Assembly: GCA_963707915.1 (NCBI GenBank)
Contig: OY970178.1
Span: forward strand, 1,120,001 to 1,184,000
Length of the DNA: 64,000 bases
Direction: 5' to 3'
Source: Candidatus Eiseniibacteriota bacterium
Lineage (GTDB): Bacteria > Eisenbacteria > RBG-16-71-46
In this document: positions 8,871-17,196 of the stretch, piece by piece
Position numbering within the stretch: position 1 is the first letter of the stretch
Layout: every line of letters begins with the position of its first letter
The notes under the pieces: model-generated
The model's input: the letters and a program-made list of their open reading frames with translations, nothing else
Told to the model about the DNA's origin: nothing
Databases searched by the model: none
Made by a program: the position numbers and the translations under genes

Positions 8871-9305
8871 ATGAAGAACAACGTGCGGTTCGTGTGGGTC
8901 GCGACGGCCGCGCTGGCGTTCCTCGGGCTCTCCGCCCTGGATGCCACCGCCCAGGTCAGCATCATCGTCTCGGCATCGAGCACTGCGAAGGCGTCTCCCG
9001 CACAGGTCGCGGACATGTTCGCGGGCGTGACGACGACCTGGTCCACCGGCAGCAAGGTCCAGATCGTCGACCAGCCCGACACGCCGGTCGGCAAGACCTT
9101 CTACATGAAGCTCGTGAAGCGCCCGGTCACGATCGTGAGAGCCCAGTGGACGAAGCTCTCGCTGTCGGGCCAGGGGCTCGCGCCGAAGCGCGTGGCGGAC
9201 GACGAAGCCATGAAGGACGCGGTCAAGAAGTCGCCCGGCGCGATCGGGTACATCGCCAGCAGCTCGCTGGACGCGAGCGTCAAGGAACTGGCTCGCGTCG
9301 AGTAG
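8871..9305 (+). CDS. Small periplasmic binding-protein-like (PstS/PBP2-like single domain) protein
   Basis: Signal peptide; V.DMF.G..W, FY..L, W..L..SG.G..P and V...PGAIGYI patterns; GAGGAG RBS. Confidence 0.7.
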   Translation: MKNNVRFVWVATAALAFLGLSALDATAQVSIIVSASSTAKASPAQVADMFAGVTTTWSTGSKVQIVDQPDTPVGKTFYMKLVKRPVTIVRAQWTKLSLSGQGLAPKRVADDEAMKDAVKKSPGAIGYIASSSLDASVKELARVE

Positions 9306-9327
9306 GCTCGTTCCCCGGATCCACCCG

Positions 9328-9358
9328 CGGGCTCCCGGCCGTGTCGGCCGGGAGCCCG
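9328..9358. terminator. Hairpin between convergent PBP and rtcB genes
   Basis: CGGGCTCCCGGCC-gtgtc-GGCCGGGAGCCCG, 13-bp stem. Confidence 0.6.
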
Positions 9359-9470
9359 TCGCGTCTCCCACGCCGGCGCGCCGTCCGTCCGCCGCGCCGT
9401 TCGCCCTTCGCCGCCACCGGCGCCGCGCCGGCCGGCGCGGCCTGCCCGCCCCGGGAGCGGAACGGGCGGC

Positions 9471-10923
<1,453 letters not shown>

Positions 10924-10957: not shown

Positions 10958-13734
10958 TCAACCGGCCGGCGCGGCCTCCCGCAGGAACCTCCCGGTCCAC
11001 GACGCCTCGCACGCCGCGATCGCCTCCGGCGGGCCCTCGGCGACGAGCCGTCCGCCGGCCTCGCCGCCGCCGGGGCCCAGGTCCACGACCCAGTCGCTGT
11101 TGCGGATGACGTCGAGGTTGTGCTCGACCGCGATCACCGTGTCGCCGCGCGCAGTCAGGTCGTCGAGGACCTCGAGCAGGCGCTGCACGTCCGCGTAGTG
11201 GAGCCCCACGGTCGGCTCGTCCAGCAGGTAGAGGGTCGGCCCCCCGCTGCGCTCCGACAGCTCGCGGGCGATCTTGAGCCGCTGCGCCTCGCCGCCCGGA
11301 GAGCTGGGTCGCCGGCTGCCCGAGCCGGAGGTAGCCGAGCCCCACGCGTCGCAGGATGTGCAGCGCCCGGGTGAAGCGCGGCTCGGCGGCGAAGTGCTCG
11401 AAGGCCTGGTCCACGGTCAGGTCGAGGGCGTCGCGCACGTTCACCCCGCGGTAGCGCACCTCGAGCACCTCGCGGCGGAAGCGGTCCCCGCCGCAGGTGT
11501 CGCAGGGCACCAGCAGGTCGGCGAGGAAGTACATCTCGACCGTGACCCAGCCGGCGCCCTCGCAGGCCTCGCAGCGCCCGCCCGGCCGTGTTGAACGAGA
11601 AGGCGCCGTCCCTGAGCCCGCGGGCGAGCGCCGCGGGCTGGCGGGCGTACACCTCCCGCAGCGCCGCGAAGGCGCCGAGGTAGGTGACCGGGCAGGAACG
11701 CGGCGTTCGCCCGATGGGCGACTGGTCCACGAGCGCGACGCGCTTCAGCCGCTCCAGCCCGGTCACCGCCCGGTGCGTCCCCGGCGGCTCGTCGCCGGCG
11801 CCCTCGAGCGCGAGCCGTGCGGCGCGGTGGAGCACGTCCTCGACCAGGCTGCTCTTGCCCGAGCCCGACACGCCGCTCACGGCCGTGAGCCGGCCGAGCG
11901 GGAAGCGCGCGTCCACGCCCTTCAGGTTGTGGTGCGTGGCGCCCAGCACCGCCACGAAGTCCCGCGGCACGCCCGGGCGGCGCACCCGCTCGACGCGCTT
12001 CTCGCCGCGCAGGTAGCGGGCGGTGTCGGTCGCGACCCCCGCGAGCGCCGCGCCGCCCGGCCCGGCGTAGAGCAGGCACCCGCCGAGTTCGCCGGCCCCG
12101 GGCCCGAGGTCCACGACGTGGTCGGCCGCGCGCATGACCAGCGGCTCGTGCTCGACCACCACCACGGTGTTCCCGCGGTCGGCGAGGTCCCGGAGGATGG
12201 CGACGAGCCGTTCGGTGTCGCGCGGGTGGAGCCCCACCGTGGGCTCGTCCAGCACGTAGAGCGTCTCGGTCAGGTTCGCCCCCAGCGCGTTGGCCAACTC
12301 GATGCGCTGGGCCTCGCCGCCGGACAGCGTGCGGGTCGCCCGGTCGAGGGTCAGGTAGCCGAGGTCCACGCGCTCGAGGAAGCGCAGCCGCGATTCCACC
12401 TCGGCGAGCACCGGCCCGGCGACCCCGCGCTCCGCCGGCGTGAACTCGAGCCCGGCGAGCCACCGGGCGGCCGCCGAGATGGTGAGCGCGCTCACCGCGG
12501 CGATGTCCTGGCCGCCCAGCCGCACCGCGCGCGCCTCGCGCCGCAGTCGCGTCCCACCGCAGTCGGCGCACGGCAGCGCCGTCTGGTAGGCCTTGACGAG
12601 GAAGCGGTTGCCCGCCTTGTAGGACTTCTCCTTGCGGCGCTCGAGGAACGGGATGACCCCGCGGAAGCCCTCGCCGCCCTCGAGCAGGAGCCGCCGGTGC
12701 CCGGGCTCGAGCCGGTCCCACGGCTCGTCGAGGGCGATGCCCCGCTCCCGCGCGAACTTCTCGATGCGCGGCCAGGCGAGCCGACGCCAGGAACCGGCCC
12801 ACGGCTTGAGCGCCCCCTCGCGCAGGCTCTTCGAGGGATCCGGCACGATCCGGTCCACGGTGAAGGTGAGCACGTCGCCGAAGCCCCGGCACGCGGGACA
12901 GACGCCCAGCGGGCTGTTGAAGGAGAACAGGGCCGGCTCGGGGCGCAGCGCGGCGGCCCCGCAGTGGGAACACTCCCAGAGCTCGCTGCGCCGCTCCGGC
13001 GGCCCCTCCCCCCGCCACAGCTCGAGCCGGCCCTCGCCCCGGCGGAAGGCCTGCTCGCACGCTTCCGCGAGACGGGCCTCCTCGCCGCGCCGCCAGGTGA
13101 AGCGGTCCACCACGACCCGCACCTCCGCCGTGCCGCGCTTGAGCTTCGGCAGCGGATCGAGCGGGCGGACCTCGCCCGAGAGCACCACGCGCGTGTAGCC
13201 GGCGGCCAGCAGGTGGCCGGCCTGCTCCTCCCAGCCCAGGCTCTTGGCCAATCGCACGGCGGCGAGCACGAGCAGGGCATCGCCCTCGGGCCAGCCGGCC
13301 GACTCCCGCACGATGCCGGCGGGGCTGTCGGCGCGGACCGGCCGGCCACACTCGAGGCAGCTCACCTGGCCCAGCCGGGAGAAGAGCACGCGCAGGTAGT
13401 CGCTCACCTCGGTGGCCGTTCCGACCGTGGAGCGCCCGCTCCGCGCCGGGGCCGACTGGCGGATGGCGACGGCCGGCATGAGCCCGTGGATGGTGTCCAC
13501 GTCCGGCCGCGGGAGGCGGTCCAGGAATTGCCGGGCATACGTGGAGACCGACTCGACGTAGCGCCTCTGGCCCTCGGCGTAGAGCGTGTCGAAGGCGAGC
13601 GAGGACTTCCCCGAGCCGGAGACCCCGGTGATCACGCTCAGCCGGCCGCGGGGCAGGTCGAGGTCGAGGTTCTTGAGGTTGTGCTGGCGGGCGCCGCGAA
13701 TCTCGATGGCGCTCGCGGGGGCGTTCTCGGGCAA
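10958..13734 (-). CDS. uvrA: Excinuclease ABC subunit A, split by two apparent +1 frameshifts (about 11582 and 11296)
   Basis: [17 protein letters not shown] (twice), [18 protein letters not shown] and zinc-finger Cys pairs distributed over three consecutive ORFs; TTG start inferred. Confidence 0.9.
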
Positions 13735-13994
13735 CGGGGCCTCGGATCGGCGAACGGCACGCGGCGGAGTGCGAGCCGGGTGACTATAGCACCCGCCGAC
13801 GGCGGCCGAGCCGGCCGCGGCGGTCGGGCCGGAAGACGCGAGCGGCCCGCCCATCCATGGGCGAGCCGCCGCAGGTCACTGGAGGAAATCGGCCAGCCCT
13901 AGCGCAGAGCCTCCAGCCCCTGGCCCGAACGGTTCACGACCTCGCGTTCCCGGCGAGCGGTTCGTGGACAGCACGGGCTGCACCTCTAACGATC

Positions 13995-14025
13995 GGGGAT
14001 TGGCCGGCATCGCCGACCAATCCCC
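13995..14025 (-). terminator. Terminator-like hairpin downstream of the lysine-rich microprotein
   Basis: Minus-strand RNA GGGGAUUGGUCGGC-GAU-GCCGGCCAAUCCCC; the single irregular pair is a G-U wobble only on this strand. Confidence 0.65.
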
Positions 14026-14052
14026 TGAGGACGTGCCAGGTCCTGAAACGAA

Positions 14053-14121
14053 CTACTTCTTCTTCTTGGCGACCTTCTTCTTGGCGACCTTCTTCTTGGC
14101 GACCTTCTTCTTCGCTGCCAT
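14053..14121 (-). CDS. 22-aa lysine-rich, histone-H1/protamine-like microprotein MAAKKKVAKKKVAKKKVAKKKK
   Basis: ATG..TAG; 15-nt repeat AAGAAGAAGGTCGCC x3; AAGGAGGTGATC (14126-14137) complementary to the canonical 16S 3' end; downstream hairpin; not in the ORF track. Confidence 0.8.
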   Translation of the reverse strand: MAAKKKVAKKKVAKKKVAKKKK

Positions 14122-14262
14122 TTCTGATCACCTCCTTGGATCTGATCTCGTCGGTGGAGTCCCCAACTTCACGCTGGGACACTGTTGGCCGCCGCCTTGG
14201 GCGCGGCCCTGGCGGCCCGGCGGAGTTCCCGAGAACTCCACTTGGCCTTGCATTTCAATGTA

Positions 14263-14278
14263 AGCACGTTCCATTCCA
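14263..14278 (-). promoter_or_regulatory. Putative sigma54 -24/-12 promoter for the microprotein transcript
   Basis: TGGAATG-GAAC-GTGCT with exact GG-N10-GC spacing, in a lower-GC intergenic region downstream of a bEBP gene. Confidence 0.6.
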
Positions 14279-14508
14279 CACGGCGATGGAAGTCCGGCAA
14301 ATTGAGTCCAAGTCACTGCAGCACAGCTGAATAAGCGACTCGACGTTGGCCACTCGCAGGTCGGCTCGTCCGCGTATTCGCCCGGTCGAACCGCTCTAAC
14401 CGTCAACTTAATGGCAACTTAGCCGGGACGGAGTTTGTAATCAACTGCAGCACAATAGCTTGCAAGTCGATGTCCACTTCCTTGTGGGTGTCAAGATACT
14501 GGACGATT

Positions 14509-15864
14509 TCAGCTCTCCTCGAGCGTCCGCGAGCGTCGCAGTTTCTCGATGAGACCCTGCCGCGAGATGCCCAGCACGCGCGCGGCGCGGCTCTTGTTCC
14601 CCGCGGTGAGCCGCAACACCTCGGCGATGTGGTCCGCCTCGATCTGCGCCAGGGTGGGAAGCGCGATGGAGTGGTCCGAGGCCAGCCGCCGGCCGGCGAC
14701 CTCCGCCGGGAGGTGATCCACCTCCAGCTGTCGCCCGTCCTCGAGGAGCACGACGCGCTCGATGAGGTTGCGCAGTTCGCGCACGTTGCCGGGCCAGCGG
14801 TAGGACAACAGGAGGCGCGCCGCGTCGGGCGCGATGTCGCGGAAGTCCTTCTGGAACTGGCGGGAGAACTCGCGCATGAAGTGCCGGGCCAGCAGCAGGA
14901 CGTCGTCTCCGCGCTCGCTGAGCGGCGGCAGGTGGATGCTGACGACCTTGAGGCGGAAGTACAGGTCGCTGCGGAAACGCCCGTTCCGGATGTCGCTCTC
15001 GAGGTCCTTGTTCGATGCCGCCACGATGCGGATGTCGACGCTGATGTCCTCGGCGCCGCCGACGCGCTTGAAATTGCGGTAGTCGATGAAGCGGAGGAGC
15101 TTGGCCTGGGTCGGCATCGACATGTCCGCCACCTCGTCCAGGAAGAGCGTGCCGCCATCGCAGAGCTCGACCAGGCCCTTCTTCAGGTCCCCGGCGTCCG
15201 TGAAGGCGCCACGCTCGTGCCCGAACAGCTCGTTCTCGAGCAGGGTCTCCTGGAACGAGGAGCAATTGACCTCCATGAGCGGGGCCTGGGCCCGGTCGCT
15301 GCGGTAATGAATCGCCCGTGCGACCAGTTCCTTGCCGGTCCCGCTCTCCCCGGTGATGAACACCGAGGTCGCCTGGCTGCGCACCACCTTCTCGATGAGG
15401 TCCCGCACCTCCTTCATGGGCCCGGAGGTGCCGATGATCTCCTCCCCGGTGTAGCGGCGCTTCTCCTTGCGGCGGTAGAGGTCGAGCTCGTTGGCCTGGC
15501 GGAAGGTCCGGGCGGCCGCTTCGACCGCCATCTCGATGTCCTCCTTCTCGTAGGGCTTCCGGAGGAAGTCGCAGGCCCCGAGTTTCATGGCCTCGACCGC
15601 CGACTGGACGTCGCCGTAGGCGGTGATGACGATGACCTGGACCAGCGAGTCCATCTGGCGCACGCGCCGCAGCACCGAGAGGCCGTCGGTGTCCGGCAGG
15701 CGCATGTCGAGGATGATGACCTGCGGGCGCACGCTCTCGACCTTGTCGAGGCCCTCCGCCCCGGTGCTCGCGCCCTCCACCAGGTAGCCCTTCTCGCGCA
15801 ACACGCGGGACAACGACTTGCGGATGAGGATCTCGTCGTCCACCACGAGCACGGTGTTCTTCAC
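14509..15864 (-). CDS. Sigma54-dependent response regulator (REC-AAA+-Fis HTH; NtrC/AtoC/ZraR family)
   Basis: VLVVDDE receiver, [49 protein letters not shown]. Confidence 0.95.
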   Translation of the reverse strand: MKNTVLVVDDEILIRKSLSRVLREKGYLVEGASTGAEGLDKVESVRPQVIILDMRLPDTDGLSVLRRVRQMDSLVQVIVITAYGDVQSAVEAMKLGACDFLRKPYEKEDIEMAVEAAARTFRQANELDLYRRKEKRRYTGEEIIGTSGPMKEVRDLIEKVVRSQATSVFITGESGTGKELVARAIHYRSDRAQAPLMEVNCSSFQETLLENELFGHERGAFTDAGDLKKGLVELCDGGTLFLDEVADMSMPTQAKLLRFIDYRNFKRVGGAEDISVDIRIVAASNKDLESDIRNGRFRSDLYFRLKVVSIHLPPLSERGDDVLLLARHFMREFSRQFQKDFRDIAPDAARLLLSYRWPGNVRELRNLIERVVLLEDGRQLEVDHLPAEVAGRRLASDHSIALPTLAQIEADHIAEVLRLTAGNKSRAARVLGISRQGLIEKLRRSRTLEES

Positions 15865-15868
15865 GAGC

Positions 15869-16993
15869 CTAGTCCTCCGCCGGCTCGGGAGCGCCCGGCG
15901 GCTCCGCCGGGACCGGGAAGGAGACCCGCAACGTCGCCCCGCCACCCGCGTTGTTCTTGGCGGTGATCACGCCGCCGACCTCGCGCACGATCTGCAGGGA
16001 GATGGGCAGGCCGAGCCCGGTGCCCATGGAGCGCGTCGTGAAGAAGGGGTCGAAGATCTTCTCCATGAGCTCCCGGGGGATGCCCACGCCGGTGTCCCGG
16101 AAGGAGACGTCCACCACCGAGCGCCGGGTGCGGTAGCGCCGCACTCCCAGCATGACGTGCAGCTCGCCCCCCTGGGGCATGGCCTGCACGGCGTTCAGGC
16201 AGAGATTGAGGAAGACCTGCTGGGTGAGGTCCGGGTCCGCGTAGACCAGCGGGACCTCCTCGGCCACCTCGGCGTAGTCCTTGAACAGCGTCACCTGGGC
16301 GTCCCCCAGCTGCAGCTCGAGCAGGTCGAGGGTCTTCTCGAGCACCTGGCGGAGGGAGCACGCCTGGGGGCGGGCGGCGGGCGGGCGGGCGAACATGAGC
16401 AGCCCGGTGATGATCTGCTCGATGCGGTCCAGCTCCTTGATGACGTCCTCGAGGTCCTCGCGCCGGGCGTCGTTGGGCTTGAACTTCGAGCCCACGTACT
16501 GGACCGTGGTGCGGATGCCGGTCAGCGGGTTGCGGATCTCGTGCGCGACGTAGGCCGACAGCTCGCCCAGCGAGACCAGCCGGTCGATGTTCTTCTGGAA
16601 CTCGCCATCCTCGCTCTCGGAGGTGGCCTCCGCCATCACCAGCGAGCCGGTCAGGACGCCGTCCTCGTCGCGCAGCGGCAGCGACTCGGCCTTGAGCGTC
16701 AGCTCGCGGCCTTCCGCCTCGATGCGGAACTCGCGCGGCTCCCGCGAGGCGCCCTTCAACCAGCGCGCGTCGGCCCCGGGGAACAGGCGCCCGGCTGGCA
16801 ACCCCAGCAGTCCGCCCGGCTCGACGGCGAACAACTCCTCGATCCGGCGGTTGTTGTACGTGACGCGACGCTCACGATCGAGCGCCACGACCCCCTGTTC
16901 CAGCGCGTCCAGCACCTGCGAGGGCCACGGGATCGGCCGCGACGCGGGCTCGGACTCCGCCGGGCGTGCGGGAGCTTCGTTACGCGTGCTCAT
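15869..16993 (-). CDS. Cytoplasmic PAS sensor histidine kinase
   Basis: PAS-like N-terminus, AHEIRNPL, QVFLNLCLNA, DTGVGI, PFFTT..GTGLGL; GGAGG RBS. Confidence 0.92.
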   Translation of the reverse strand: MSTRNEAPARPAESEPASRPIPWPSQVLDALEQGVVALDRERRVTYNNRRIEELFAVEPGGLLGLPAGRLFPGADARWLKGASREPREFRIEAEGRELTLKAESLPLRDEDGVLTGSLVMAEATSESEDGEFQKNIDRLVSLGELSAYVAHEIRNPLTGIRTTVQYVGSKFKPNDARREDLEDVIKELDRIEQIITGLLMFARPPAARPQACSLRQVLEKTLDLLELQLGDAQVTLFKDYAEVAEEVPLVYADPDLTQQVFLNLCLNAVQAMPQGGELHVMLGVRRYRTRRSVVDVSFRDTGVGIPRELMEKIFDPFFTTRSMGTGLGLPISLQIVREVGGVITAKNNAGGGATLRVSFPVPAEPPGAPEPAED

Positions 16994-17117
16994 CGGCCCT
17001 CCGCGGGAGAAACCTACGGTGCGAACGGAGAGGTAGCACACGCCGCCCACGCAGGCAACGGAAGAGGCGACGACGAGCACCCGCGCGACCCCGGCCCGCG
17101 CGGGTGGGACCGTCTGG

Positions 17118-17146
17118 TTGAGCGCGCCGGAGGCGGCTGGTAGAAT
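17118..17146 (+). promoter_or_regulatory. Putative sigma70 promoter for the ppiD-like gene
   Basis: TTGAGC-N17-TAGAAT. Confidence 0.6.
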
Positions 17147-17196
17147 GGGCGGTCCCTTCTTCCCCACGTCGTTTCGTCCCGTTCCGGGAGCCCTGA

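Follow-up and report, generated by a model that had tools for sequence, protein, structure and literature searches.

A conserved 22-codon poly-lysine gene with its own sigma-54 promoter behind a kinase–activator pair in Eisenbacteria

In a 64,000-nt stretch of the genome of a Candidatus Eiseniibacteriota bacterium (assembly GCA_963707915.1, contig OY970178.1, positions 1,120,001 to 1,184,000; hereafter the window), an open reading frame (ORF) of 22 codons, most of them lysine codons, lies on the minus strand between the genes for an NtrC-type activator and a UvrA paralogue. The locus raises the question of whether a frame so short and so biased in composition is a gene and, if it is, how it is switched on and what its product does. 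The gene is real and previously unannotated, and its RNA is seen in nature. Good support exists for the gene and for how it is regulated; we infer from the sequence that it is activated by the particular pair of a PAS histidine kinase and an NtrC-type activator encoded beside it, that it is translated to a stable peptide, and that this peptide has a polyanionic target.

The predicted product of positions 14121-14053 (minus strand), MAAKKKVAKKKVAKKKVAKKKK, has 13 Lys among its 22 residues and no acidic residue, as an earlier note on this DNA had claimed and as the sequence and its translation confirm. The genome comprises 3.62 Mb with 72% G+C, and Lys accounts for 2.0% of its codons (811 long ORFs), which makes a frame with 59% Lys compositionally extreme for this organism. 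The perfect 15-bp tandem repeat inside the ORF (Table 1) has no further copies in this genome, based on a genome-wide search, and a genome scan for other strongly basic micro-ORFs preceded by a Shine-Dalgarno (SD) sequence found just one. Gene callers drop genes of 22 codons, and the gene is therefore invisible in annotated Eisenbacteria genomes; the statement in the earlier note that it had been missed by gene callers fits the absence of the exact peptides (five forms) from a collection of 15 billion predicted proteins (exact look-up). No Pfam family was matched by the 22-aa form or by the 27-aa and 101-aa forms of relatives (E ≤ 10), and no NCBIfam family by the peptide (E ≤ 1); the 101-aa relative had no match at E ≤ 0.001 among 8000 scored candidates, a null result that is weakened by the composition correction of HMMER. 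No published description of this gene was found in listings and abstract openings of the literature on Eisenbacteria, sigma-54, and lysine-rich or polylysine small proteins.

The loci of relatives, 80 in number, were anchored on the neighbouring activator protein. In 69 of these loci, a Lys-rich ORF is located behind a GGAGGTGA-type SD approximately 400 nt downstream of the activator, which excludes a chance ORF. Ten of the 11 loci without the ORF are on contigs with at most 358 nt after the activator. L054 (4865-5765) is the only locus that has ample downstream DNA yet no poly-Lys gene, and a zinc-ribbon transposase-like ORF is present there instead. The 654-nt gap between the activator and UvrA paralogue genes is matched in 39 of 41 related genomes, and its best-kept part consists of the SD, the ORF and the hairpin that follows.

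Complete short-form ORFs (n = 66) represent 44 distinct DNAs and 24 distinct peptides, with the consensus MA(A)KKKAAKKK(A/G/V)TKKKAAKKKK. All but one are 17–27 aa in length (17 aa, one; 19 aa, one; 21 aa, 19; 22 aa, 42; 23 aa, one; 27 aa, one), the remaining one having 11 aa, and all length differences are whole codons. Steps of 15 nt in repeat number had been predicted, and forms of 17 aa (L016), 27 aa (L029) and 11 aa (L040) were found. The KKKVA pentapeptide repeat also named in the earlier note is present in this genome, but the strict threefold repeat is confined to its genus, beyond which the consensus differs. At non-Lys codons, minority bases are distributed over codon positions 1:2:3 as 8:27:50 in the 22-aa class and 9:20:47 in the 21-aa class. 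Among distinct ORF DNAs, 43 start with ATG and one with GTG, and all end in TAA or TAG. Lysine is encoded by AAG in 558 cases and by AAA in none (genome background AAA 2.1%), and GCT provides 25% of Ala codons in the ORFs vs. 3.2% genome-wide. In variants from environmental RNA contigs, the four listed indels within the ORF are of 3, 6, 3, and 3 nt, and two indels in the leader are of 1 and 2 nt. From this coding signature, we conclude that the frame is very probably translated.

The 12-nt SD is the exact complement of the 3' end of the organism's own 16S rRNA, GATCACCTCCTT (12 of 12 bases; the 16S ends in ...GGATCACCTCCTTTCT), so that the maximal ribosome-binding site previously deduced from the canonical 16S sequence also holds for this genome. 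Outside rDNA, the 12-mer is single-copy in the genome. There are 31 GGAGGTGAT sites genome-wide, few of which precede an ORF; one of those few fronts a ribosomal-protein-like ORF. The SD core GGAGGTGA is kept in every short-form locus examined, with GGGGGTGA in two loci.

Of 70 loci, 68 have a -24/-12 match to a sigma-54 promoter 104–169 nt before the ATG; the two exceptions are long-form loci. Most relatives have the canonical form TGGCACG-N4-xTGC(T/A), and this genome has a weaker one, TGGAAT-N5-GTGCT. The genome encodes rpoN, and the adjoining activator carries a sigma-54 interaction domain; a scan of the region for sigma-70 and terminator consensus sequences found no promoter. Farther upstream is a conserved element that includes the palindrome GTCAAG-N3-CTTGAC (Table 1). 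The element shows 85–95% conservation in many relatives, and its TGGACA keeps a fixed distance of approximately 198 nt to the promoter in 29 of the first 45 listed (of 66 sequences), and further ones are within 2 nt of this distance; the palindrome core TCTTGACAC-N3-CAA is single-copy in the genome. The palindrome is a candidate binding site for the activator. The earlier note had not recognised the promoter, nor the structured leader and the 15-nt box described below.

A small part of this region recurs in five RNA runs, four of which were compared with it. Two soil metatranscriptome runs from one study (X6 and X11) yielded short contigs on 14093-14249, a span that corresponds to the leader, the SD and the first codons. 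Each contig has 2–7 letter differences from the window and a word depth of 40–1025, which is not an expression measure. X6 and X11 gave no contigs on the activator gene and hardly any beyond the terminator. Four of the contigs stop at 14248/14249, and two of these four continue with three unmatched letters (CCC, GCC) followed by adapter-like sequence, which we take to be the start of an Illumina adapter. DNA similarity at the family level likewise starts at 14248/14249. We read this position, with its three unmatched letters, as the 5' end of the RNA, 12–16 nt past the C of the -12 element (14264). If the extra C's are template-switch additions, the RNA would be on the minus strand. Run X4 and, apart from one contig considered below, run X15 were set aside, as they mostly contain low-complexity Lys-codon pieces of other organisms that match the ORF.

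The transcript so defined is strongly structured: in this genome, the fold of the whole RNA has a free energy of -116 kcal/mol (z = -5.5 vs. shuffles). The stem-loop at the 5' end of the leader has compensatory changes at all seven inner pairs (37 sequences). The hairpin at 13995-14025 that the earlier note had placed after the ORF is a covarying stem of 14 bp, with changes on both sides at 3 of 11 pairs and with 97.8% of cells paired in relatives. In controls for structure, none of 500 shuffles reached any observed measure, and sliding the partners reduced pairing from 93.6% to 35–51%. The presumed terminator lacks a U-tract in this genome, and a T-rich tail is present in many relatives; the consensus scan of the region did not call the hairpin. 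A search of Rfam 15 gave no credible family, the best score (23.4 bits vs. a cut-off of 40) being for an unrelated viral element on the terminator hairpin. Together with its palindrome, promoter, 5' stem-loop, 3' box, and terminator, the ORF appears to form a self-contained sigma-54 unit, an interpretation that is well supported.

Table 1. Positions in the window of the elements of the poly-lysine unit and of its neighbouring genes.
Feature	Position	Strand	Basis or location
22-codon poly-Lys ORF	14053..14121	-	Reads ATG...TAG; span includes the stop codon
Perfect tandem repeat of 15 bp within the ORF (3.6 copies)	14059..14112	.	Repeat detection
12-nt Shine-Dalgarno sequence AAGGAGGTGATC	14126..14137	-	4 nt upstream of ATG
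Sigma-54 promoter TGGAATGGAACGTGCT (-24 GG, -12 GC)	14263..14278	-	-24/-12 match
Probable RNA 5' end in environmental relatives	14248..14249	-	Four X6/X11 contigs stop there
5'-terminal leader stem-loop	14214..14247	-	Minimum free energy fold and covariation
Invariant 15-nt box GGACCTGGCACGTCC in the 3' untranslated region	14029..14043	-	Between ORF stop codon and terminator
Putative terminator hairpin, 14-bp stem, 3-nt loop	13995..14025	-	Fold and covariation
Conserved element with palindrome GTCAAG-N3-CTTGAC (14490-14504; one arm mutated here)	14468..14506	-	Directly 3' of activator stop codon
NtrC-type sigma-54 enhancer-binding response regulator (receiver, AAA+ and Fis-type helix-turn-helix)	14509..15945	-	Pfam Response_reg, Sigma54_activat, AAA_lid_14, HTH_8
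PAS histidine kinase	15869..17167	-	Pfam PAS_4, HisKA, HATPase_c
UvrA paralogue, conserved downstream neighbour	11155..13854	-	Pfam/NCBIfam

The 15-nt box is unchanged in all complete short-form units whose box region can be read (65 of 65); L040, the ORF of which is reduced to 11 aa, has one mismatch. A sample of the phylum (151 genomes, including the unpublished genome G026) has the exact box in 57 of its 59 members of this family and in 5 of 6 from a sister family, compared with six hits for the reversed sequence as a control. It is single-copy in this genome. In the sister family, the box is exact although the peptides are of 26–27 aa and differ in sequence. Three sporadic hits of the 15-mer in other families (L104-L106) have no Lys-rich ORF alongside and occur at a rate close to that of the reversed control, and were read as chance. 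G022 is the sole genome of the 151 with two exact boxes (C19:30398 and C20:11583), for which a duplicated unit or a mixed bin is possible.

The segment CACGUCCU of the box differs by one letter from the anti-SD of the 16S rRNA, CACCUCCU, and RNAalifold pairs it with the AGGAGGUG of the SD. The box:SD duplex has a calculated energy of -17 to -23 kcal/mol, compared with -22 to -26 kcal/mol for SD:16S. All columns of the SD:box pairing are invariant, and there is no covariation signal. In single-sequence ensembles of 64 transcripts, its probability has a mean of 0.115 and a median of 0.001 and exceeds 0.5 in 7 of 64; a local 4-bp GGAC/GUCC hairpin of the box has a mean probability of 0.355 in these transcripts. 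The pairing is thus not favoured in the ensembles, and the anti-SD look-alike is kept only as a lead on the box, though the best one. As a look-alike of the sigma-54 -24 element (CTGGCACG), the box lacks a -12 partner at the right spacing. A likeness of the box to an anticodon loop (CUGGCAC) or to the complement of a conserved 16S segment would be another possible reading.

Our favoured reading of the locus is that a soluble PAS histidine kinase would phosphorylate the adjoining NtrC-type activator, and that the activator would bind the conserved palindrome 3' of its own gene and open the sigma-54 promoter. This would give an RNA of approximately 255 nt that begins with a protective stem-loop and carries the strongest ribosome-binding site of the genome, the 22-codon ORF, the box and the terminator; large amounts of a peptide with a net charge of approximately +13 would be made from it. 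This peptide would act by charge alone: in a state of stress or dormancy to which the kinase responds, it would coat and compact polyanions of the cell, be they chromosomal DNA, rRNA and ribosomes, or polyphosphate. It could be described as a miniature histone-H1 tail or protamine or, viewed differently, a ribosomally made "macro-polyamine." Lysine peptides start to condense DNA efficiently at a length of about 13 lysines. The earlier note had likewise proposed a protamine-like condensing peptide. The longer Lys/Arg-rich forms in the same slot favour a miniaturised H1-tail-like polycation; the peptide has no match to Hc2, H1, or any other Pfam or NCBIfam family. We regard the whole chain, from induction by the kinase and activator to a polycation acting by charge on cellular polyanions, as evenly poised between right and wrong.

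Several observations weigh against this reading. The observed 5' end is 15 nt past the -12 C in window coordinates, approximately 3 nt beyond the textbook spacing, and one low-depth contig of a third run (X15) passes this end and reaches 14284. The RNA evidence consists of assembled contigs of close relatives from one study rather than raw reads of this strain, and the case for the peptide is made at the level of DNA and RNA. Chromosomal DNA, ribosomes, and polyphosphate would suit the sequence of the peptide equally well as targets. Three genes of the HU/IHF family and one for HPF are already present, which leaves no obvious functional gap for the peptide. The box, finally, is better conserved than the peptide, which hints at a layer of function at the RNA level, outside this reading.

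The ORF could in principle be a chance frame in a tandem repeat at the DNA level, with no product, as the perfect 15-bp repeat of 3.6 copies in this genome might suggest. However, the perfect repeat is missing from most relatives, which nonetheless retain the ATG and SD, the frame with its stop codon, and the Lys pattern (the earlier note had singled out the fate of the ATG, SD and frame in relatives as telling), and the frame is kept in 66 complete ORFs, which refutes this explanation; we attach practically no probability to it. The order of a run of one codon, a strong hairpin, and a gene on the same strand would also be expected of a leader peptide, in which ribosome speed on the 13 Lys codons would control the terminator and hence the UvrA paralogue, a gene that is present downstream in 57 of 80 loci. 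This is very improbable, in our judgement: UvrA is at distances from tens of nucleotides to approximately 1700 nt (L017), and is absent from more than 2.9 kb of downstream DNA in L043 and L044; there is no logical reason for lysine supply to govern a DNA-repair ATPase; no conserved antiterminator is predicted as an alternative pairing; and the ORF stop codon is 27 nt upstream of the terminator hairpin. Moreover, the ORF of one family is translationally coupled to a receiver gene, as expected of an operon member and not of a leader.

The conservation of the box raises the alternative that the RNA is the main effector, with dual-function or regulatory activity, the box and/or the maximal SD titrating 30S subunits or an RNA-binding protein, or base-pairing with targets, and that the peptide is secondary. 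The box is constant across 65 units that accompany 24 different peptides, and across the sister family despite its different peptides; it is single-copy per genome in the 57 and 5 genomes of the two families; the transcript fold is strong; the box is close enough to an anti-SD to pair with the SD; CsrA is encoded (1186222-1186380 of the genome); and the layout is like that of CrcZ behind cbrB. Nevertheless, the ORF has a strong coding signature, distant homologues encode longer proteins, the SD:box pairing is without covariation and has a low mean probability, the box of a third family differs (GGGCGCGTCC(C/T)), and no Rfam family is matched, so that we consider an RNA effector rather unlikely. 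An Hfq sponge of the CrcZ type was dropped as a candidate, since Hfq had no match in the genome, which is 94.8% complete. Alternatively, the peptide could be a conditional ribosome-associated or hibernation-type factor that enters rRNA and silences or stabilises ribosomes, or that, as a highly cationic chain too short to span the exit tunnel, stays in the tunnel of its own ribosome. A tiny, very basic peptide and a structured mRNA at high contig depth in soil RNA would fit such a role, and the rmf and hpf mRNAs in dormant cells are similar. In this genome, rpoN is directly upstream of an hpf-type gene (G000:C1:1106061-1106849, minus strand), which is the classical arrangement, and the absence of AAA among 558 Lys codons fits selection for faithful reading of poly-Lys. 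We are doubtful of this alternative too, as no ribosomal-protein or hibernation-factor model (Pfam, NCBIfam) is matched, HPF is already encoded, and a low-complexity Lys/Ala repeat of variable copy number is atypical for a defined rRNA pocket.

A charge-based compactor, the reading we favour, would have precedents among larger proteins. Chlamydial Hc2 (HctB) is reported to range between 165 and 237 aa depending on how many lysine-rich pentamers it has (PMC2848022), and the H1-like protein AlgP of Pseudomonas has been linked to the spacing of polyphosphate granules (PMC9239181). The peptide resembles both in its short Lys/Ala-rich repeats, its variation in copy number (here 11, 17, 22, and 27 aa), and a repeat without acidic residues, and polyanion binding would be expected of all three by analogy. 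It differs in being 17–27 aa rather than more than 100 aa in length (5–10 times shorter), in belonging to no Pfam or NCBIfam family, and in having its own sigma-54 promoter behind a kinase–activator pair, a structured leader, and an invariant 3' box.

Small transcripts located directly behind the genes for their sigma-54 activators include CrcZ behind cbrB, Qrr with LuxO, and GlmY with GlrR. The locus shares with these a kinase and sigma-54 activator followed by a -24/-12 promoter and a short, terminator-ended transcript, and its repeated AAG triplets resemble A-R-N protein-binding motifs; unlike these transcripts, it has a conserved coding-like ORF with a maximal SD, no Hfq found in the same genome, and no Rfam match. 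Tiny basic ribosome-bound proteins and hibernation factors include bS22, bL37, Thx, and RMF, to which the peptide is similar in being very short and strongly basic, with plausible rRNA binding by analogy. It differs from these in its low-complexity repeat, in the lack of a model match, and in its predicted inducible expression, as opposed to expression from ribosomal operons. Elsewhere in the genome (G000:C1:685628-685723, plus strand), directly after an HU-family gene, there is a 31-aa basic ORF with an SD (MGSGKKRKRKK...) that has no NCBIfam match and is presumably bS22-like.

Comparison of more distant loci suggests how the unit may have arisen. In distant relatives, with activators 57–60% identical, the same slot is occupied by a 101-aa Lys/Arg-rich protein (L089) or by an RKKAT-repeat protein of at least 43 aa that is truncated where its contig ends (L088). 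A third family of the order has, in sequence, the kinase, the activator, the sigma-54 promoter, a CheY-like single-domain receiver, the poly-Lys ORF, the terminator and the UvrA paralogue; its peptides are MAAKKKAAKKATKKKATKKKK and similar, behind the SD GGGGGTGA and with the 3' box variant given above. The TGA stop codon of the receiver gene (L121:3575-4062, minus strand; likewise L122) is inside the SD GGGGGTGA of the poly-Lys ORF, which indicates translational coupling of the two. The TGA within the SD core GGAGGTGA in the window may be a relic of this stop codon. A receiver gene is also present between the activator and the Lys-rich gene in long-form loci. Thus, the constant theme would be a kinase–activator pair that drives a Lys-rich product, and the family represented by the window appears to have lost the receiver and gained the structured leader.

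Long Lys/Arg-rich forms (L119, on G039:C176, and L089/L120) share a short non-basic end motif, MEPPIT or MEPDIT, with an acidic tail in addition in L119; the motif may be an ancestral C-terminal module that was lost by the 22-aa forms. L118 (G021:C10:460300-461600) combines a Lys-rich N-terminal part with a C-terminal one that is DksA/TraR-like, an architecture that recalls the H1-like/DksA-like protein DdbA reported from Streptomyces (PMC3643593).

The micro-gene is among the best-conserved features of the locus and has its own sensor–activator switch. If it does encode a charge-based compactor, this would be the smallest known nucleoid or ribosome polycation of bacteria and would open a way to study dormancy in a phylum from which nothing has been cultured; the maximal SD and the box would be a clean case of RNA-level control acting on a micro-gene. 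More speculatively, ribosomally made polylysine peptides switched by sigma-54 could be a stress device, so far undescribed, that is widespread among uncultivated phyla of soil and sediment, a macro-polyamine that neutralises and compacts DNA and ribosomes at entry into dormancy, and the Eisenbacteria mRNA could limit itself through an anti-SD look-alike that competes with 16S rRNA for the SD. We think it unlikely that this wider proposal is correct as it stands.

All genes of the neighbourhood are on the minus strand, in the order PAS histidine kinase, NtrC-type activator, 654-nt gap with the ORF, UvrA paralogue, and RtcB-like ORF. In 79 of 80 loci, a gene for the kinase precedes that of the activator; translation of its gene points to an internal Met at residue 59 as the likely true start, with no membrane segment beyond it. 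The activator matches AtoC/NtrC-like models of NCBIfam, under the equivalog cut-offs. The distance to the UvrA paralogue is very variable among the loci that have it, and we see no functional tie between it and the ORF from the gene order and sequences. The UvrA-like protein (11155-13854, minus strand) scores 724 bits vs. a UvrA equivalog cut-off of 1147, and has no match over its last ~140 aa; another UvrA gene, the product of which is 45% identical, is located at positions 658018-660834 of the genome. The next ORF, of 547 aa (9280-10923, minus strand), matches RtcB over its first ~125 residues alone, with intein-containing RtcB models as the best NCBIfam matches, and may encode an interrupted or divergent RNA ligase.

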